Under the pieces are notes generated by a model. That model saw only the letters and a program-made list of their open reading frames with translations, had not been told where the DNA came from and ran no database searches. A DNA stretch of 64,000 bases, taken from positions 26,145 through 90,144 of the IMG/VR virus record IMGVR_UViG_3300010391_001464. One strand, 5' to 3'. Made by a program: the position numbers and the translations under genes. Below are positions 12,815 through 40,328 of the stretch, one piece after another (the first letter of the stretch is position 1; each line of letters opens with the position of its first letter). The stretch comes from a virus.

Positions 12815-13828
12815 ATGTACTTTTGCGATTATGGTTGTGGTAATGAAGCAATAATTACGTTCAAAAATGGAAAAAAGTGTTGCCAAGAAAAATATTCAAA
12901 ATGTCCCGGGTTACGAAAAAAATATAGTAACCCGGGATCTAAAAATCCAAGATTTGGTAAGCATTGGTCTGAGGAATGGAAAAAAAATCATTCTGAAAAA
13001 TTAGTAGGAAGAAAGATTAAAAGAACTTTTATTCCTATAAAATTAGAAGAAGACAAAAATATCTTATGTGATTTTTGTAATAAAAGACTAGCTAAGTATA
13101 AATTAAATAATGGAAAAAATTGTTGTGAAGAACATCAAAGTAAATGTCCAGAAATAAGAGTTAAAATAGGAAAAAAAATAAAAGGAAAAATGGTTGGTAT
13201 AAATCATCCATTTTTTGGAAAAACTCACACAGATGAAGTTAAACAATTACAATCTATTAGAGTAAAAGGAAATAAATATAATTTAAATACATTAAATAAG
13301 ATAAATAAAAAGTATCCATTTTTTTCAGAGATTGAAAATACAAAAGAGATAAATGGAAGTTTAATAGTAAAATGTAAACATTGTAAAAAATGGTTTGAAC
13401 CTACAAGATCTCAGTTATATGAAAGAATTTATGCTATAAAAAATAAAGGGACTATTCATGATACAGGAAATTCATATTTTTACTGTTCTTCTGAATGTAA
13501 ACTAGAGTGTGTATATTATTACAGAAAAAAAGATCCTGACATTCTAAGAGAATATGAAAGATATAAACAAAATGTATTAAAATATACTAATAGAAATATA
13601 AAATTTAACTTTGATAAAATCGAAAATTCAAGTAAAAAAATAAATGGAGATAACTTAGAACTGGATCATAAATTTTCAATATATTCAGGTTTTATAAATA
13701 ATATTGATCCAAAAATAATTGGTCATTGGAAAAATTTAAAATATATAAAAAAAGTAGAAAATAGAAAGAAAAGAGAATCTTGTTCTATAACTATTGAAGA
13801 AGTTCTTTCATATTCACAGGAGGTTTAA
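12815..13828 (+). mobile_element. Free-standing HNH/NUMOD3-type homing endonuclease between the RNAP genes
   Basis: NPRFGKHWSEE and HPFFGKTHTDE NUMOD3 repeats, CxxC motifs, C-terminal ELDH...HWKNL...N..K. Confidence 0.8.
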
Positions 13829-13832
13829 AATA

Positions 13833-16800
13833 TTGAATATTATTAATCCTAATTTTAAAGTTAATGAAGATAAAAATATTTTTAATATTAGACAAAAGGA
13901 ATTTGATAACTTAGAACCTTTAATAAGACAAACTATTTCTCCAGTAGAGGAACTTGGTTTTACTGTTAAAGAATTTGGAATCAGAGAAAGTAGATATACT
14001 GCAGGAGATCTAAGTAAAACTTTAAAACAAAATATAGTTATTAAACTTGAGAAAAATAGTACTGATATAGATATAACTTTAGCAATGCCAACATTGGTTG
14101 ATAAAAATTATATAGTTATAGGTGGAAGAAAAAAAATTCCTCAATTTCAATTATTTGATGTTCCAGTTATAACAAGAGGAAAAAGTACTAAAATAAGAAC
14201 GAATGTTGCTACAATTATAGTAGAAGAGGAAAAAAATCCACCATTTATTAGCGTAACTGTATTAAGTAAAAAAGTTCCACTTTCTCTTATTATTTTTGCT
14301 AAATATTCTAAACAAGAAATTATTGATAGATTTAAATTAGTGGACCTTGATGAGGAGTCATTAAAAAGAGATAATTATTATGAAAAATTATTATATGATT
14401 TAAAGAAAACATATATTGAAGCAATAAATTCTGAAATGACTCAAGATGATTTTATTAAAGCTCTCGGTGAGTACTACTCAAAATATAATGCTAAAGTAAA
14501 AGGTGAAGATGTCATATATGCTTTAGATATTATGTTAAAAGTAGATATTATGACCGCTAGATTTTTTAAATCTAAAAATATCATAGATGAAATAATTGAA
14601 GTAATAAAATTAGGTGAGATTGATGATCTAGATTATAGAAATAAAAGAATTAGATGTTTTGAGTATATAGTATTAGCAAAAGTTTCAAAAATTATATTCG
14701 ACCTTTGTACATCAAATAGATCGCTAAAACAACCAAAATTTAATGTAAATTCTACTCAAATTTTAACTGAATGTAACGTGTCTGATATAGTTCAGTTTGA
14801 TTTTTCTATTAATCCTATAGAGGAATTAACTAAACTATCTAGAGTAAGTTTAGTAGGCCCAGGTGGTTTTGATAAACAAAATATTCCGGAGCATCTAAGG
14901 GATGTAGCTCCTACAATGTTTGGAAGAATATGTCCAGTTGATACTCCAGATAGAGAAAATTGTGGAGTTCAGCATAATTTATTACCAAATGTTGATTTAG
15001 ACGAAAATCTTAAATTTACAGATAAAATCCTAGATAAACAACCAATATCTATTCCAGTAGCAATGGTTCCATTCCTAGAACATGATGATCAAACCAGACT
15101 TCAAATGTCTTCTTCACAAATGAGACAGGCAATTATGTTAAAGGATTTTGACCAAGCATTAGTACAATCTGGAATAGAAGGAATATATACTGATCAAACT
15201 CAGTTTTTAAAACGTGCTAAAAAAGATGGAGAAATATTATATGTAGATAATAAATATATAATAGTTGTTTATGATGATAAAGAAGTTGAAATATTTGATA
15301 TATCATATAGAAAAATTTATGTAGGAAATATGGACATATTCAAAGTCTATATAAAACAAGGAGACAAAGTAAAGCGAGGTGATATATTAGCTGAAAGTAA
15401 TTATTGCCATGATGGAAGGATACAATTTGGAAAGAATTTATTAACAGGTGTAATGATTCATTATGGTTATAATTATGAAGACGGTATAGTAATATCAGAT
15501 AGATTAGTAAAGGATGGAATTCTTACTTCTCCTCATTTTGTAGATTTATCATTTAATATCCCAACTAATAAGGTTTTATTAACTCTTGATTCTAAGAAGT
15601 ATAAACCCTTGCCAGAAATAGGCGAAGAGATAAAAAATGGTAATCCCTACGCAATAATAAAAGAAATGCCAACAGATAACATGGTTGATTATTATACTGT
15701 GTTCGAAGAATCAAATCCATTATTAACTAAAAATGACACGATTGTAACTGAAGCAAACATATTTATTAATGAATGGAATGAGAATATTCCAGAATTTAAT
15801 CATTGGGTTAAAGATGTAATTAAAAAGCAAAATAGAGAAGAAGAACAATTTCAAGGAATTCTTAATGAATATTTACCGAAAGACTCAGCTACTAAATTTA
15901 TAAAAGATAATGATTTAGATAAATTTTCATCAGTTGGTAAATATAAAATAAAGAATGAAAAAATAAATGGTATTCATGTAGAAATGTATGGAATATTCTT
16001 TAGGCCTATAAAGGTCGGAGATAAAATTGGAAATAGACATGGTAATAAAGGTATAATTTCAAATATAGTACCACATGATAAAATGCCAAAGTTAGAGGAT
16101 GGTAGACATCTTGATATTTGTATAAATCCACTTGGTATTATATCTAGAATGAATATTGGTCAATTATTTGAATTACATTTAACAATGTCTATTAATGATT
16201 TAAAGAAAAATCTTTTAGTAATGTTGAACAGTAGTTCAAATACTAAACAGATTGATATGAAAAAATATTTAATAGAATATATTAAGATTTTAGATAATAC
16301 TGTTGGTAATTGGTATTCTTGTCAGTTCATATCTCAAATTCCAAAAGTTATAGATGAAAACTTTATAAATAATTTATTTATAGTTCAACCACCGTTTGAA
16401 TCAACTCCAATACAAAAGATTGAAGAGGCATTAAAATTTACAGGTACTAATTTTACTTATAATTTACATGATCCTATTTCTAATCATAATTTCTTAAATA
16501 AAATAGCAGTAGGTTATATGTATTTCTTCAGAATGGTACATATAGCTGAAAACAGACTAGCGGCTAGAGGTATTGCATCTTACGCTAGAAGAACTCTTCA
16601 ACCATTAGCAGGAAGAAAAAACCGTGGTGGACAAAGATGTGGAGAAATGGAAACTGCATGTTTAATTGCGCATGATGCCCCACATAATTTATATGAATTT
16701 CAGACTACTAAATCTGACTGTATAGATTTAAAAAATAAATATATTCGAGAACAAATAGAAACAGATTTAGTTAAAGAAGAAAAAGAGATTGATTCTGTAT

Positions 16801-16862
16801 CAGAGTCAGTTAAATTACTGAATGCATACCTCACTGTAATAGGTGTAGATCGTAAAAACTAA
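13833..16862 (+). CDS. rpoB: Phage multisubunit RNA polymerase beta-like subunit
   Basis: GRICPVDTPD, PFLEHDD, YNYEDG, GDKIGNRHGNKG, SRMNIGQ, GGQRCGEME; TTG start after GGAGG. Confidence 0.97.
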   Translation: MNIINPNFKVNEDKNIFNIRQKEFDNLEPLIRQTISPVEELGFTVKEFGIRESRYTAGDLSKTLKQNIVIKLEKNSTDIDITLAMPTLVDKNYIVIGGRKKIPQFQLFDVPVITRGKSTKIRTNVATIIVEEEKNPPFISVTVLSKKVPLSLIIFAKYSKQEIIDRFKLVDLDEESLKRDNYYEKLLYDLKKTYIEAINSEMTQDDFIKALGEYYSKYNAKVKGEDVIYALDIMLKVDIMTARFFKSKNIIDEIIEVIKLGEIDDLDYRNKRIRCFEYIVLAKVSKIIFDLCTSNRSLKQPKFNVNSTQILTECNVSDIVQFDFSINPIEELTKLSRVSLVGPGGFDKQNIPEHLRDVAPTMFGRICPVDTPDRENCGVQHNLLPNVDLDENLKFTDKILDKQPISIPVAMVPFLEHDDQTRLQMSSSQMRQAIMLKDFDQALVQSGIEGIYTDQTQFLKRAKKDGEILYVDNKYIIVVYDDKEVEIFDISYRKIYVGNMDIFKVYIKQGDKVKRGDILAESNYCHDGRIQFGKNLLTGVMIHYGYNYEDGIVISDRLVKDGILTSPHFVDLSFNIPTNKVLLTLDSKKYKPLPEIGEEIKNGNPYAIIKEMPTDNMVDYYTVFEESNPLLTKNDTIVTEANIFINEWNENIPEFNHWVKDVIKKQNREEEQFQGILNEYLPKDSATKFIKDNDLDKFSSVGKYKIKNEKINGIHVEMYGIFFRPIKVGDKIGNRHGNKGIISNIVPHDKMPKLEDGRHLDICINPLGIISRMNIGQLFELHLTMSINDLKKNLLVMLNSSSNTKQIDMKKYLIEYIKILDNTVGNWYSCQFISQIPKVIDENFINNLFIVQPPFESTPIQKIEEALKFTGTNFTYNLHDPISNHNFLNKIAVGYMYFFRMVHIAENRLAARGIASYARRTLQPLAGRKNRGGQRCGEMETACLIAHDAPHNLYEFQTTKSDCIDLKNKYIREQIETDLVKEEKEIDSVSESVKLLNAYLTVIGVDRKN

Positions 16863-16906: not shown

Positions 16907-17203
16907 ATGACTACTGTAACAATCGTAACATTAACTATCGAACAAGTAAAAGCTTATTTTGAAGGAAAGGGTCTAAATGTTGAAGATCCTGGAACCACTA
17001 ATCTAACTTATAACAAGATGTTAGTTATAGAAAAAGATGCTGAAGCAACATATGGCAAAGAATTTTCAAAGTTCGTACGTAGTATCTGGGACAAAACCAC
17101 AAAAGAGTCAGCAACAGGAAAGCGTAAATTTTGGAATTACTTTCCAAAGTACAAGTCATGGAATGATTTGACAACTGCCTATACTGCCTCTATAAAGAAG
17201 TAA
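16907..17203 (+). CDS. Hypothetical protein
   Basis: ORF with SD GGGAG. Confidence 0.65.
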   Translation: MTTVTIVTLTIEQVKAYFEGKGLNVEDPGTTNLTYNKMLVIEKDAEATYGKEFSKFVRSIWDKTTKESATGKRKFWNYFPKYKSWNDLTTAYTASIKK

Positions 17204-17345
17204 GCTTAGATAAAAGTGGAGTTGGTTAACCCTGCCATATAATAGGGAGTGGTAAACACTTTTTCTAAACTACAGTTGGTGGAAACTTTAAAAGCCATAT
17301 AGGATTTTTTAAATTGGTAGGGACCATGGTTGGAGGGGACTCTAT

Positions 17346-17376
17346 AAAATCTATTCATTAGAATAGATTTTTTTTA
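17346..17376 (+). terminator. Intrinsic terminator
   Basis: AAAATCTATTC-ATTA-GAATAGATTTT plus T-run. Confidence 0.75.
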
Positions 17377-17437
17377 GTCAAAAAAAGTTTTAAAAAAATA
17401 TCTAGTACACGTTTTTAATTTTAATTGAAACAAATTC

Positions 17438-17452
17438 CTATATATATTAATT
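17438..17452 (+). promoter_or_regulatory. Conserved motif CTATATATATTAATT (putative phage promoter)
   Basis: Identical copies at 39537 and 62052, and 14/14 on the minus strand at 45608-45621; all intergenic upstream of gene starts. Confidence 0.6.
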
Positions 17453-17471
17453 TCTAAGGAGGAAGTTTATT

Positions 17472-17504
17472 ATGACCAAACACTAGCTTATTCGTCCGCC
17501 GTAA
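17472..17504 (+). promoter_or_regulatory. Leader peptide MTKH(UAG)LIRPP-stop
   Basis: SD AAGGAGG then ATG ACC AAA CAC TAG CTT ATT CGT CCG CCG TAA. Confidence 0.65.
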
Positions 17505-17557
17505 AGTAATCTCTTTTATGTAGTATTATTAATTAAAAAACTAAAAAGGAGATTACT
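17505..17557 (+). promoter_or_regulatory. SD-sequestering hairpin for ORF 17561
   Basis: AGTAATCTCTTTT pairs with AAAGGAGATTACT, which contains the SD of the next gene. Confidence 0.7.
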
Positions 17558-17560
17558 AAA

Positions 17561-17974
17561 ATGAATACGATTCAAAACACACCAAAAGAACTATTCAAAT
17601 CAAAAGAACAATATCTACAGTTCATTCAAGCATGGAAAAAAGCATATAAAGAAAATAAACAATCTTTAACTTTAAAGCAACATATGTTGTACGCAATGTT
17701 CAGAAATAAAGATTGGAGAAAATGTTGTACTCCATGTACTAATAAAAATAAAATTAATAATGGTCAAAAACCAAATCAAACCACATTTACTGCATTTTTT
17801 GAATTAAGAAGAAATTATAGAAGTTTATGTGTTTTTGGTGAAAATGTTACGAATGAAATGTACGATAATTTAATTTCAAAATATCTTCCTGACCCAAAAG
17901 AGTTTAATTTAGGCGATTCAATTCCAAATTCCCCATATAAGGTTATAAATGAAACTGTTTGTTCTGGTTCGTAA
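17561..17974 (+). CDS. Hypothetical protein (first gene of the attenuated operon)
   Basis: ORF track; SD AAGGAG. Confidence 0.7.
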   Translation: MNTIQNTPKELFKSKEQYLQFIQAWKKAYKENKQSLTLKQHMLYAMFRNKDWRKCCTPCTNKNKINNGQKPNQTTFTAFFELRRNYRSLCVFGENVTNEMYDNLISKYLPDPKEFNLGDSIPNSPYKVINETVCSGS

Positions 17975-18245
17975 GGACCTTAGTAAAAATCAACAAGCAG
18001 TTCAAGCTGGACATGTAGTAGCTCAATATCTATTACATGTCCAGAATCATTCATGGACTAACGGAACATTAATCTATCTCGGAGTTGATAATAAAGAAGA
18101 GCTAGAGATATGGGGAGATAAATTAGACATGCAAGGATTAAACTGGGTTGGATTTAAAGAACCTGATTTGAATAATGAAATGACTGCATTAAGTATTGCT
18201 TCAGATGAAAATCCTTTCAAAAGATTAAAACTAATGGAATTATAA
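17949..18245 (+). CDS. Pth2-like peptidyl-tRNA hydrolase
   Basis: KLFVLVRKDL....QAVQAGH and FKEPDL...TAL motifs of the PTH2 fold. Confidence 0.75.
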   Translation: MKLFVLVRKDLSKNQQAVQAGHVVAQYLLHVQNHSWTNGTLIYLGVDNKEELEIWGDKLDMQGLNWVGFKEPDLNNEMTALSIASDENPFKRLKLMEL

Positions 18246-18343
18246 ACATGGGATTGATGTAATAACCAAGACAGTACGAAGAGGATAGACATATAACACA
18301 CCATCATTCTCTTAACGACAATCGGGTAAATCAGTCCCATGTT
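18245..18343 (+). ncRNA. Putative structured RNA
   Basis: AACATGGGATTGAT...ATCAGTCCCATGTT closing stem; inner AAGAGGAT/ATTCTCTT stem. Confidence 0.45.
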
Positions 18344-18358
18344 ATTAAAAAAGTAAAC

Positions 18359-18430
18359 ACCTCATTAGCTCAGCGGTAGAGCGATGGTCCCTAAAACCAA
18401 ATGTCACGGGTTCAAATCCTGTATGAGGTA
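18359..18430 (+). tRNA. tRNA with CUA anticodon (putative amber suppressor, Trp-like arm); no encoded CCA
   Basis: Acceptor ACCTCAT/ATGAGGT, D arm GCTC/GAGC, anticodon arm TGGT-CC CTA AA-ACCA, T arm ACGGG TTCAAAT CCTGT; C rather than U at position 33. Confidence 0.7.
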
Positions 18431-18464
18431 TTTAATATTAACCACTAACCAATAAGGACAAAAC

Positions 18465-19211
18465 ATGAAGAGGATTTTCGGAACTATCATCTTATTAGTT
18501 TTAGTAGCATCTAGTGCTTTCGCATATCGTCCCTTTTACACAGAAGATGCTGAGATTGTAGGTGATAAAGTATTTCAAAATGAATTCAGTATCGATCAAA
18601 TAGAATGGAAGTCAGAAGACACAGACACAATTATTACTGACATTGTTTATTACGGAATAAATAAGAATATTCATGTTGCTGCTGGCATCCCTTATTCCAA
18701 ACATAAGATCTATAAAGGAGACTCATTCAAAGGATATGGAGATTTTTTCCTTGTCGGAAAATATATTGTTATAAGAGATAAGAATGATATGGCAAGGATT
18801 GCTATCAAAGCTACCGGAAAATGGAATAATGGTAGTTATGATAAATATGTTGGTTTTGGAGATAAGGAATATGCAGGTATTCTTTGTTTTACTCAACCAA
18901 TATCTGAAAAGATACTTGTCCATGCTCAAAGTGGATATACAGTCGTAACTGACAGAAAAAATCCCGACTATAAGAATTATTGGTTATATGCTGTCGGTAC
19001 TGACCTTACCATAACAAAGAAAGGTCATTTAATTGCAGAATTAATCGCCAATAAAAATTTAATCTCAACTCTTCAACAGCAGAGGTTCATAAATGTTGGA
19101 GGATATTATATTATTAATAATTACTGGAATTTTGACTTAACTTATCGTAATGGATTAACTGATACAGCTCAAGATCATGGTTTTGGTGTTGGCCTTGTAT
19201 TTCATTATTAA
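18465..19211 (+). CDS. Exported outer-membrane beta-barrel-like protein
   Basis: Signal peptide ending SAFA, alternating amphipathic strands, C-terminal GVGLVFHY. Confidence 0.6.
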   Translation: MKRIFGTIILLVLVASSAFAYRPFYTEDAEIVGDKVFQNEFSIDQIEWKSEDTDTIITDIVYYGINKNIHVAAGIPYSKHKIYKGDSFKGYGDFFLVGKYIVIRDKNDMARIAIKATGKWNNGSYDKYVGFGDKEYAGILCFTQPISEKILVHAQSGYTVVTDRKNPDYKNYWLYAVGTDLTITKKGHLIAELIANKNLISTLQQQRFINVGGYYIINNYWNFDLTYRNGLTDTAQDHGFGVGLVFHY

Positions 19212-19621
19212 AAAATTTGAGGAAATATGAAACCTATCAAAAATATAACTAAATGTGGAGCAATATGTATGGATAAGACCAAATAATAAGATTACCAAGA
19301 GGACTCCCTGTTTTATATATAGTTGCTTGGCCATTCGATTTTTTATATACTATATATAAGAAAGAATTTAAAAGATATGGGATCAGTTATACAGAAGATG
19401 ACACTAAGTTTTATATTAAAGGATTTGTTTCTGGAGATACTCATGAGAAAGGACTTAGTATTGTAGCACTCGACAATGAGAAATGCTGTCTTTTGTATTA
19501 TCGAGATGAAAAAGCTGAAATAATACGAAAAACTGCAAGGCTCGGATGGTACAGAAGAAATGAAATTATGGATGCTGGTATTGCAAATTGTCCCTACTAA
19601 ATTATTAAGATAGGAGTAAAT

Positions 19622-38275: not shown

Positions 38276-39208
38276 TTGAATTATAAAGAATACGGATATG
38301 GTGTTGGTAGTACTGCAGGAAAATATCTTAGAAATGAATTATTAAAAATACAAGAATATAAATGTGCTATTTGTGATGAAAAATTTAAAACAAAAAGAAC
38401 TACAAATATGGATCATAATCATAAAACAAATGATATAAGAGGATTATTATGTAATAATTGCAATTCAATTTTAGGTTTTTCTAAAGAAAATATAGAAATT
38501 CTACAAAAATCAATTAAATATTTAAATAAACAATATAATCATAATGAAAAAATTAAGAATTTAATTGGTTCAAAAAGAAATATTTATAAAATAAATTTAT
38601 GGTTAAAACAAGAAAATAGTTGTGCTATTTGTGAAATTAAATATCAAGAATTAGATAAAACTATTCATCTAGATCATAATCATGAAGATGGTATCATAAG
38701 AGGTATGTTGTGTCAATATTGTAATTGGATTTTAGGACATTGTAATGATAATATAAAAATACTTAATGAATCTATTAAATATCTTGAAAATAATGGATTA
38801 AAAAATATTATAAAAATAATTGAACCTAATATTAAATTAATAAAGGAAAAAACTTTTAAAGATAAATTCATTAAAATAGGACAGAAATTAAAATGGAGAA
38901 AGAAAAAACCATTTTCTGAAGAGACAAAAAGAAGAATGAGTGAATCAAGTAAAGGGAAAAAGAAAAACCCGACATCTGAAGAAACAAAATTAAAAATAAG
39001 TAAATCAACTAAAGGAAAAAATAAGAAGCCATTTTCAGATGATCATAAAAAACATTTAAGTGAATCAAATAAAGGAAAAAGATTAGGAACAAGAAAACCA
39101 ATGTCAATAGAAGCAAAAATAAATATGAAAAAAGGACAAAAAAGAAGACGTGATATAGAAAAAATGGAGAATCTAAATGAAAATAGAAACTATAATGGAA
39201 CTATATGA
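38276..39208 (+). mobile_element. Homing endonuclease with two EndoVII-type domains and NUMOD3 repeats
   Basis: Two copies of CAIC...DHNH...RG.LC..CN..LG; SEETK repeats. Confidence 0.85.
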
Positions 39209-39533
39209 AAAAGAGCGTTTATATCAAGAAAAAGTATTTGGAGATTATGAAAATAATCCGGCTTTAAATGTTGCGTCATTTCTTAATTTTATAGAGATGT
39301 ATTTAGAAAAAGCAAAAAAATCATATGCCGAGCCATGGACTCATTATGAAAAGTTTCCTGAATGGTTTACTACATGTAAAGAACATAGTACCCAAGATAT
39401 GGCACCAGTAAAAACATATGAGTACCTAATAAAAATAATGGTCCTAGCTGGTGCAGCATTAGAAGCATATTCGGAATTAGATCCTGATTTTTGGCGAGAA
39501 GATAATAAACCAAAAGAAAAATGGACTAGGTAG
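39177..39533 (+). CDS. Hypothetical protein (MazG-like helical fold possible)
   Basis: ER.YQ...G and LIKI..LA.AALE. Confidence 0.45.
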   Translation: MKIETIMELYEKERLYQEKVFGDYENNPALNVASFLNFIEMYLEKAKKSYAEPWTHYEKFPEWFTTCKEHSTQDMAPVKTYEYLIKIMVLAGAALEAYSELDPDFWREDNKPKEKWTR

Positions 39534-39536
39534 TTT

Positions 39537-39551
39537 CTATATATATTAATT
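39537..39551 (+). promoter_or_regulatory. CTATATATATTAATT motif copy
   Basis: Exact repeat, upstream of ORF 39585. Confidence 0.6.
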
Positions 39552-39584
39552 AGAAATAAAGAATTTTGGTTCGGAGGTTATTCT

Positions 39585-40328
39585 ATGAAAGGAAATCTTT
39601 CAGAGGTTTTAAAAAGAAAAGAAGTTATACAAGAAAAACCAAGAGAAGATGAATTAGATATTCCTGATAAAACTACTCCAGTTGAAGCAACTAGTAGTTC
39701 AGTTATCGAAGAAGAAAAAAGAAGTATAGATATTGGGTTTACAAATCTTTCATCCTGGTTTATAGAAAATGTTAAGAATTTTCCAAATATAAAACAAGTA
39801 AAAGTAAGCATCCAAGGAATAGATCCCAATAAGACTTTAATATATTCAGAACCAGAACCTACTCCTACTGATCCAAACAACAGGAAACTGCAAGTTATTT
39901 ATAATGCAATTGATACTCCAGTTTTAAATATACCTGGACAATTATTTGAGACTTATTTTTCTGGATTTAGAGTAATTCATGAAGAAAAAAATGGTATGTT
40001 ATTAAAAGCATATATTGTTAAAACTGGAATGTATATTACTCATTGTATTATAGTAGATGGATTACCAATACCAGTAAAGATTGAAAAAGTCAAAAAGAAA
40101 TCTAAAGGTATAGGACTTTTGAAAGTAGATATTAAAAATATACAGGATAAATTCGACAAGATCGTAGATTTAGAAAATATTCAATTACAATATAAACAAA
40201 TTCAAAAACATATAAAGGATTTAAAAACAATAAAAGATGTAACTATATGGATGCTCCAAAGGCAAAAAGATATATCGGACATAAATCATCATCTTAAGCT
40301 TGACGAGCTTATAATCTCATTATTTTAA
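39585..40328 (+). CDS. Hypothetical protein
   Basis: SD GGAGG; followed by a hairpin at about 40334-40362. Confidence 0.7.
   Translation: MKGNLSEVLKRKEVIQEKPREDELDIPDKTTPVEATSSSVIEEEKRSIDIGFTNLSSWFIENVKNFPNIKQVKVSIQGIDPNKTLIYSEPEPTPTDPNNRKLQVIYNAIDTPVLNIPGQLFETYFSGFRVIHEEKNGMLLKAYIVKTGMYITHCIIVDGLPIPVKIEKVKKKSKGIGLLKVDIKNIQDKFDKIVDLENIQLQYKQIQKHIKDLKTIKDVTIWMLQRQKDISDINHHLKLDELIISLF

Follow-up and report, generated by a model that had tools for sequence, protein, structure and literature searches.

Arrest peptides of the Arg-Ala-Pro-Pro (RAPP) type halt the ribosome that translates them with R-A-P in the peptidyl (P) site and Pro in the aminoacyl (A) site, and this RAPP/RGPP arrest is resistant to EF-P and tolerates varied N-terminal sequences (PMC7897499, PMC12992588, PMC10951233). 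The RAPP-like set includes ApdA and ApdP (RAPP), ApcA (RAPG), SecM (RAGP) and the RAPP/RGPP upstream open reading frames (ORFs) of Streptomyces (PMC7897499, PMC10951233, PMC10987492, PMC12992588), and several of these peptides act by opening a stem that hides a Shine-Dalgarno sequence (SD). Mutagenesis of ApdA and ApdP found the middle residue to be fully permissive as A or G and partly permissive as S, D or P, with RGPP the strongest form and the Arg irreplaceable (PMC12992588). Here, we describe a related arrangement in a viral contig of 90 kb from a sediment metagenome, analyzed over a stretch of 64,000 nt (record IMGVR_UViG_3300010391_001464, positions 26,145-90,144; hereafter the window), in which a short leader places an R-P-P-stop sequence behind an in-frame UAG. 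Downstream lie an orphan ORF, a gene for a protein with the fold of peptidyl-tRNA hydrolase 2 (Pth2) and a tRNA with the amber-suppressor anticodon CUA. The in-frame UAG gate ahead of the arrest motif is the new element with respect to known arrest leaders, and we consider it likely that the leader acts as a switch at the level of translation, signaling whether UAG is being read as sense. Around a hundred phage loci that are unrelated have the design in common.

Like the RAPP-like peptides, the phage leaders carry an R-x-P core at the P-site end, with Pro in the A site in most, use the identical set of residues at x, with G the commonest, and are encoded just before the gene that they would regulate, where the stall site overlaps an SD-hiding stem. 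They differ in that the motif stands behind one to three in-frame UAGs, with read-through as the proposed input in place of secretion or membrane insertion; in their length of 7-33 residues at the stall (median 15), with no hydrophobic segment, signal sequence or membrane segment; in that many of them, including that of the window, end in R-x-P-stop or K-P-P-stop and would arrest at termination; and in that they belong to phages.

Other regulators share single aspects of this design. In the ermC/cat and trp/his leaders, as in the phage leader, a short leader is translated and the fate of the ribosome at given codons sets RNA structure or downstream reading, while the autoregulation of prfB by an in-frame UGA likewise senses the termination efficiency of one stop codon. 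Unlike these, the phage leader involves no antibiotic, amino-acid starvation, frameshift or transcription terminator, and the codon that it would sense is a stop at which termination competes with a suppressor tRNA. In engineered amber switches, UAGs are placed in trp or tna leaders or in target genes, and multiple UAGs cut leakage (review PMC6412442). There, too, downstream expression needs translation of the leader past UAG, and several UAGs tighten the control; the engineered switches regulate transcription via an exposed rut site, whereas the phage leader is of natural origin and would act on an SD via an arrest peptide. A further parallel is the C-terminal tail of mammalian AMD1, in which read-through leads to an arrest peptide, with only read-through ribosomes reaching the downstream arrest and stalling there (PMC13025110). 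The AMD1 tail is a eukaryotic element at a gene's 3' end, and its stall has been proposed to restrict translation of the same mRNA rather than to open a downstream start.

For the change of code in cells infected by phages with reassigned stop codons, the known parts are suppressor tRNAs and, occasionally, release factors or synthetases. Phage "code change modules" combine a suppressor tRNA with an aminoacyl-tRNA synthetase, a release factor or both, next to recoded late genes, and the suppressor tRNAs have been proposed to time late genes (10.1101/2021.08.26.457843), while Pth2-family genes are known in jumbo phages (PMC7824862). The present locus shares with such modules a suppressor tRNA in a large phage; within the locus, on a contig that is itself about 29% complete, no aminoacyl-tRNA synthetase or release factor accompanies it. 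Neither of the two sources ties Pth2 to suppressor tRNAs or reports a TAG-bearing leader. We found no published description of a natural UAG-gated leader in the literature, in line with the original prediction made from the sequence of this locus, which did not recognize the system as a described one.

A Leader with a Proposed UAG Gate ahead of a Predicted SD-Sequestering Hairpin

The original prediction had described a strong SD followed by the mini-ORF MTKH-TAG-LIRPP-TAA, and direct reading of the window returned both at the same coordinates (Table 1). We defined the leader pattern as an ATG, at most 12 codons, one to three TAGs and an [R/K]-x-P after which comes Pro or a stop codon; in the 90-kb contig, this mini-ORF is its sole occurrence. 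The contig from a second assembler was identical over 17380-17620, at a depth of about 115 (it comes from the same source sample and hence is not independent). The TAG is conserved in homologous loci and is a genuine codon, not a sequencing error.

The hairpin that was said to bury the SD of the ORF starting at 17561 (ORF 17561) was confirmed both by pairing and by RNAfold, in which its stem is the minimum-free-energy structure (-22.5 kcal/mol, z -2.6). Its 3' arm holds AAGGAG, the SD of ORF 17561, 9 nt ahead of the ATG. The duplex formed by the two arms (-15.9 kcal/mol) was unmatched by any of about 300 control windows, and the anti-SD spans +5 to +19 counted from the P-site codon. The arrangement is of the ermC type: a short leader ORF has its own SD, the SD of the ORF that follows lies sequestered in a hairpin and a terminator is absent. 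Transcription attenuation was considered and rejected, as direct reading found no run of T/U after the 3' arm.

The Leader Is Conserved across Related Phage Loci

To compare the locus with its relatives, we used 148 loci from viral and metagenome contigs, searched with the Pth2-like family. Leader counts refer to the 110 non-redundant loci that have a homologous Pth2-like gene and enough upstream sequence, whereas peptide-level counts (codons for Arg and Pro, residue x, A-site codon and +4 base) come from a 31-locus sample. The leader pattern was present in 76 of the 110 loci, and in further loci the same tail closes a longer frame. Its density reached 1.18/kb in the zone from -800 to -200 ahead of the Pth2-like gene, compared to 0.015/kb in the rest of the plus strand and 0.006/kb in the minus strand. 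Short ORFs and weak hairpins are common at the 27% G+C of the contig, and the z-score of the window's hairpin is modest when taken alone; nonetheless, a positional enrichment of roughly 80- to 200-fold at the homologous position, together with duplex statistics that hold over 76 loci (see below), argues that the leader is not due to chance, and we regard a chance short ORF beside a chance hairpin in AT-rich intergenic DNA as scarcely credible.

At the stall site, 30 of the 76 leaders read RGPP, 19 KPP-stop, 7 RPP-stop, 6 RSPP, 4 RSP-stop, 2 RAPP and 2 RDPP, with few others; the RPP-stop class, to which the window belongs, is thus a rarer form. Among the 31 sampled leaders, residue x was G in 13, S in 8, P in 7, A in 2 and D in 1, with no other residue, and the A-site codon was Pro in 21 and TAA or TGA in 10. 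The Arg of the motif is written as AGA, CGT, AGG, CGG or CGA and the Pro with all four of its codons. A search with the leader against all loci by nhmmer returned nothing, the leaders being without nucleotide similarity to each other. The use of five Arg codons in the absence of such similarity points to selection on the peptide and hence to translation of the part that follows the TAG; what is conserved is the architecture and not the sequence. The leaders also tend to carry a strong SD, as AGGAGG was matched at at least five of six positions in 50 of the 76 leaders, compared to 69 of 760 control ATGs.

We then considered the placement of the TAGs. Over the 76 loci, TAG makes up 8.4% of leader codons but only 0.18% of codons in the two downstream ORFs, a 47-fold enrichment, and 46 of the leaders have two or three TAGs. 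In most leaders, a TAG occupies codon 2 or 3, M-T-TAG being the commonest start (23 of 76). From the last TAG to the stall site, the distance is 4-7 codons in 65 of the 76, so that a ribosome terminating at this TAG would leave the anti-SD uncovered. As for codon context, the +4 base was a purine after 58 of 63 TAGs in the 31-locus sample. Val or Ile follows the TAG in 87 of 131 cases, and the second TAG often comes after Pro-Pro, Phe-Thr or Gly-Leu (L014, L017, L077, L105, L114, L134, L152 and others). A conserved TAG context may slow release factor 1 (RF1) or favor the suppressor.

The same distribution bears on whether the leader could be an ordinary RAPP-type arrest leader that senses some other input, such as Pro-tRNA, a hydrolase that frees its own stall or the growth state, with the TAGs being recoded sense codons. 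In-frame stop codons break conserved positions of the Pth2-like genes of several relatives (TAG was confirmed in locus L005), which indicates that UAG is read as sense there, an observation that counts in favor of the switch proposed below as well. Moreover, it is usually the product of the downstream gene whose activity relieves known arrest leaders, and release of a short stalled chain by a peptidyl-tRNA hydrolase would be plausible. Such an explanation nevertheless sits poorly with the concentration of TAG in the leaders relative to the adjacent genes, with its placement near the start and again shortly before the stall, with a leaderless subfamily that has TAG at codons 3-7 of the Pth2-like gene and with the 19 ORFs that the phage of the window ends with TAG, and we judge it improbable. 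Feedback by the hydrolase on the stall is compatible with gating by UAG, to which it may add.

Alternatively, the frame of two to four codons up to the TAG might be a "minigene" like lambda bar that sheds peptidyl-tRNA and depletes tRNA, with the Pth2-like enzyme as the remedy and the RPP tail and hairpin incidental. Drop-off of peptidyl-tRNA is favored at very short ORFs headed by strong SDs, M-T-TAG is the start seen most often and a hydrolase is encoded downstream. However, the conservation of the peptide after the TAG with its [R/K]-x-P-(P/stop) ending, the extra TAGs and the anti-SD geometry would all be left unexplained, and we give this idea very little credence.

To assess the anti-SD, we paired positions -3 to +24 relative to the predicted P-site codon with the SD region of the following ORF, using control windows of the same locus. 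The median z was -3.7, and the stall window ranked among the best 5% of controls in 66 of the 76 loci and among the best 1% in 51. Across the family, the anti-SD extends, in median terms, from +2 to +18 relative to the P-site codon, which approximates the mRNA that would lie under a stalled ribosome, and the predicted P site is located at a median of 62 nt ahead of the ATG. The anti-SD stems have different sequences and the same geometry across loci. M-x-TAG...R-x-P leaders with geometry-conserved anti-SD stems are kept upstream of Pth2-like genes in homologous loci, a pattern for which the original prediction had called for a search. Its central proposal, that read-through leads to an RPP-stop stall and to opening of the SD, gains support from the comparison (76 of 110 loci, and the pairing statistics), with read-through, stalling and switching as the predicted steps.

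In addition, 56 of the 69 loci of the first batch contain a tRNA-CUA in the sequence that was fetched, in most cases a few bases beyond the Pth2-like gene. The sequences of these tRNAs are highly diverse among loci.

A Proposed Switch That Reads UAG Suppression

We infer read-through, stalling and the direction of regulation from the anatomy of the leader, its conservation and its geometry. In the OFF state, the leader would be translated from its strong SD, RF1 would win at the UAG of codon 5 and the ribosome would leave about 20 nt short of the hairpin. The closed hairpin would then hide the SD of ORF 17561, and the overlapping and probably coupled Pth2-like gene would be off too. In the ON state, the suppressor tRNA would win and the ribosome would continue to R-P-P-TAA, where the R-x-P peptidyl-tRNA-Pro is expected to react poorly with the A-site ligand, that is, a release factor here and Pro-tRNA in most relatives. 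The parked ribosome would cover the 5' arm (17505 onward) and free the SD, and the two proteins would be made. The tRNA-CUA lies just downstream, apparently in the same unit as the two ORFs, so that the proteins would be expected only once the tRNA has matured, been charged and begun to compete with RF1. In effect, the phage's use of UAG would be delayed or would have to pass a checkpoint.

Because a tRNA-CUA accompanies the module in so many of the first-batch loci, the input of the switch is probably the balance of the phage's own suppressor tRNA against RF1 and not defence-related stress. A different input had been proposed in the original prediction, in which the leader senses host termination capacity (loss or inhibition of RF1, e.g., by translation-targeting defence) and the operon is a stress response that clears peptidyl-tRNA. 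A switch set by suppression relative to RF1 would respond to low RF1 as well, and near-cognate read-through occurs in any cell. In keeping with such a role, a function in ribosome rescue has been discussed for the Pth2 of jumbo phages (PMC7824862), and small GGQ/RF-1-domain proteins are found nearby in a few relatives. Yet most loci encode a tRNA-CUA, usually right after the Pth2-like gene, the two or three TAGs in 46 of the 76 leaders would leave hardly any basal read-through unless a dedicated suppressor were present and no defence or anti-defence gene is consistently linked. We found no evidence pointing to host defence or to general termination stress, and we consider this input unlikely.

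Several points weigh against a UAG-reporting switch or, more narrowly, against its operation in the window. The median chain of 15 residues at the stall is shorter than the arrest peptides that have been studied, and at 10 residues the nascent chain of the window is shorter than these as well. In the KPP-stop class (19 of 76 loci), Lys replaces the Arg that is irreplaceable in ApdA and ApdP. By analogy with ApdA and ApdP, which require Pro in the A site, the TAA of the window may not support arrest, the studied arrest being that of RAPP at elongation. The window is a divergent member of the family: in addition to its RPP-stop ending and short chain, the +4 base of its TAG is an atypical C, its first ORF is an orphan with no detectable relation to the ORF usually found at that place and its tRNA-CUA carries C33 (anticodon loop CC-CTA-AA) at a position where U33 is near-universal. 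Finally, the contig mostly uses TAG as a stop and has one candidate gene with an in-frame TAG, so that recoding in this phage is not demonstrated; about 70% of the phage genome lies outside the contig, which limits any verdict on recoding.

If the switch operates as proposed, a minimal arrest peptide would serve as a natural gauge of how efficiently UAG is suppressed, a conserved, uncharacterized enzyme pair would be tied to a suppressor tRNA and the range of RAPP-type arrest would come to include very short peptides and possibly termination. Simple reporters could test whether and when phage suppressor tRNAs work, as well as the role of the Pth2-like protein, and, as a compact part of natural origin, the leader could serve to place genes under amber-dependent control. 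More tentatively, large phages might hold a checkpoint for their own code change, in which a multi-UAG leader gauges suppressor against RF1 and, above a threshold, releases the Pth2-fold enzyme and a helical partner (see below) that act on peptidyl- or aminoacyl-tRNA to complete or stabilize the switch. We regard this extension as possible, short of probable; clearing the drop-off products of read-through, freeing the stalled leader as feedback and tuning the suppressor are all possible actions of the pair. If it is true, the leader would rank as the first sensor of genetic-code state from nature, and a missing component of phage code switching would have been found in the Pth2-like pair.

Downstream ORFs, Structured RNA, and Suppressor tRNA

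Table 1. Features of the leader locus and its surroundings, in coordinates of the window
Feature	Position	Strand	Basis and remarks
RNA polymerase subunit, Rpb2 domain	13794-16862		Pfam
Terminator-like hairpin, then T run	17348-17375	+	9-bp AT-rich stem, loop ATTA; direct reading
Leader SD, AAGGAGG	17456-17462	+	Direct reading; 9 nt 5' of the leader ATG
Leader mini-ORF, M-T-K-H-TAG-L-I-R-P-P-TAA	17472-17504	+	ATG ACC AAA CAC TAG CTT ATT CGT CCG CCG TAA
In-frame amber codon (codon 5), proposed gate	17484-17486	+	Direct reading
Putative arrest motif, CGT CCG CCG TAA	17493-17504	+	RPP-stop class; R-P-P would end the P-site peptidyl-tRNA, with the stop in the A site; predicted stalling
Anti-SD hairpin	17505-17557	+	Arms 17505-17517/17545-17557; 13 pairs, one G-U, ~27-nt loop
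ORF 17561, proposed first regulated ORF, 137 aa	17561-17974	+	No detectable family
Pth2-fold protein ORF, 98 aa	17949-18245	+	Family profile, fold match
Rod-like structured RNA, 99 nt	18245-18343	+	-30.7 kcal/mol, z -5.3; between Pth2-like gene and tRNA
tRNA, anticodon CUA (amber suppressor)	18359-18430	+	Rfam match, tRNA scan; no encoded CCA
MetA-like barrel	18465-19211		Pfam; shortly after the tRNA

The Pth2-like gene shares 26 nt with the preceding ORF, which makes translational coupling to ORF 17561 likely. With respect to the Pth2-like hydrolase named in the original prediction, the fold is well supported while the direct Pfam match stays below the cut-off: PTH2 (PF01981) scored 17.5 bits against a cut-off of 23, with an expect value (E) of 0.005. 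A profile of the 48-sequence family matches the solved Pth2 structure 2zv3 (E 4.9e-7), and the AlphaFold2 model of the protein (predicted local distance difference test score of 94.5) has archaeal Pth2 and human Bit1 as its top Foldseek matches, with template-modeling (TM) scores of 0.72-0.83 and E from 2e-6 to 2e-4. As judged from the model, the fold of the 98-aa protein is that of Pth2, from which its chemistry does not follow. The family keeps Q-x-G-H and E-P-D/T-A motifs. An acidic residue of the family aligns near the D of the Pth2 D-A-G motif, and the Lys-bearing loop is shorter and not conserved; in Sulfolobus Pth2, a Lys and an Asp are reportedly catalytic. The suggested recycling of peptidyl-tRNA by the operon would have its support in the Pth2 fold; one residue reported as catalytic in Pth2 is not kept.

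The Pth2-like family is metagenomic or viral throughout and carries the source names "hypothetical" or "peptidyl-tRNA hydrolase"; some relatives have a precomputed PF01981 match. Searching phage records with the window's protein by tblastn (E 1e-6) gave no match, and relatives were reached via other members of the family. The closest relatives have 64-68% identity; their contigs are not among the loci compared.

ORF 17561 occupies the slot that is filled elsewhere by an all-helical protein of about 100 aa with the motif [FY]RHxHIAYCxLRGR, which is nearly always found after the leader and upstream of the Pth2-like gene. This helical protein has no relative in Pfam, PHROG or the PDB and no Foldseek match. 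In some loci it forms a single fusion of 183-189 aa with the Pth2-like domain (L052 2234-2791, L062 2243-2791, L056, L058 and L059), which suggests that the helical and Pth2-like proteins work together outside the window. Aligned by hhalign, ORF 17561 matched the helical family at E 0.07, so that homology between the two is not shown. Relatives of ORF 17561 were found neither by the related-locus search nor by tblastn against 155 loci, and the ESM Atlas gave no usable match.

The structured RNA and the tRNA-CUA of the original prediction are both present. The former belongs to no Rfam family and has no homologue in the 155 loci by nhmmer; in this region, Rfam matched the tRNA alone above threshold. 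The window differs from most relatives in that the structured RNA separates the tRNA from the Pth2-like gene, which the tRNA follows directly elsewhere. C33 is common to the tRNA-CUA of the window and those of L028 (1753-1828) and L047 (2805-2880), whereas the other 53 tRNA-CUA genes have T33; its recurrence in two other AT-rich relatives argues for a shared trait and not an error.

In a few phages, small proteins of about 110 aa with an RF-1 domain and GGQ motif, similar in size to ArfB, are encoded no more than 1-2 kb from the module (L003 1178-1510, L004 2022-2360, L014 1742-2053, L133 and L101). A tblastn search with a phage GGQ protein found none in the 90-kb contig.

Genomic Setting and Amber Usage of the Contig

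At 90 kb, the contig is estimated by CheckV to be about 29% complete, which points to a very large phage as its source. Blastn of 17200-19300 against phage records gave no match. The stretch was detected solely in the source sediment sample, and no RNA dataset is among the sequencing runs listed. Upstream of the leader, the terminator-like hairpin of Table 1 is the likely end of the preceding unit, and the leader would thus head a separate unit; a consensus terminator scan missed this hairpin because its stem is too poor in G-C pairs. In Rfam, there is a weak alignment, BTnc231-like, over its 3' hairpin (E 0.4, far under the gathering score). The promoter-like motif of the original prediction was not recovered, as a sigma-70 scan placed no site before the leader (4 sites compared to 7.2 expected); the phage has its own RNA polymerase, for which reason this result carries little weight.

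TAG terminates 19 of the 115 ORFs of the contig. After these ORFs, a back-up TAA or TGA follows at a median of 3 codons, compared to 7.5-8 for ORFs with other stops (Mann-Whitney p 0.009). The close back-up stops look like insurance against amber read-through, which fits a cell with occasional read-through of UAG. At 39177-40328 on the plus strand, two ORFs of 118 and 247 aa in the same frame are split by one TAG (39531-39533), and reading this TAG as sense yields a single frame of 383 aa, the sole candidate recoded gene in the contig. The frame has no Pfam or PHROG match.

A Leaderless Design and Cultured Phages

A distant, longer subfamily of Pth2-like proteins has no leader; instead, the gene itself opens with M-x(1-5)-TAG, in at least 10 loci. 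The same opening is found in the 735-kb phage LR756501 and in the cultured Salmonella phage Arash. Two different designs thus appear to make synthesis of the Pth2-like protein dependent on amber read-through. In Arash (OQ632216, L162), the Pth2-like frame at 1483-1812 begins M-L-TAG-N-K-H-W and is split into two pieces in GenBank, and a tRNA at 2798-2872 that is annotated as Phe has the anticodon CUA according to ARAGORN. Arash is a possible laboratory model of the directly gated form. Seven phage records of GenBank were inspected, of which four represent cultured phages, and none of these showed an [R/K]xP leader.

Mycobacterium phage Myrna (NC_011273, L157) encodes a Pth2-like protein, gp84 (1477-1833), inside a tRNA cluster. 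An in-frame GTG-TAG-GTG precedes its annotated start, and a tRNA at 1963-2034, annotated as Ser, has the anticodon CUA according to ARAGORN. Fusions of an HD-like and a Pth2-like domain are found in Xanthomonas phage XacN1 (L158, 940-1800), Stenotrophomonas phage RAS14 (L160, 937-1800) and L067 (~1928-2800); in these, the frame starts a few codons ahead of the annotated ATG with M-K-TAG, or in L067 with M-N-T-TAG.

Within the leaderless subfamily, TAG leaders are also found before a different ORF of 112-146 aa (L068 3648-3686, L069 2816-2842 and L075 3266-3301), one example being MNYK-TAG-VTARPP-stop. The device therefore seems to be modular.

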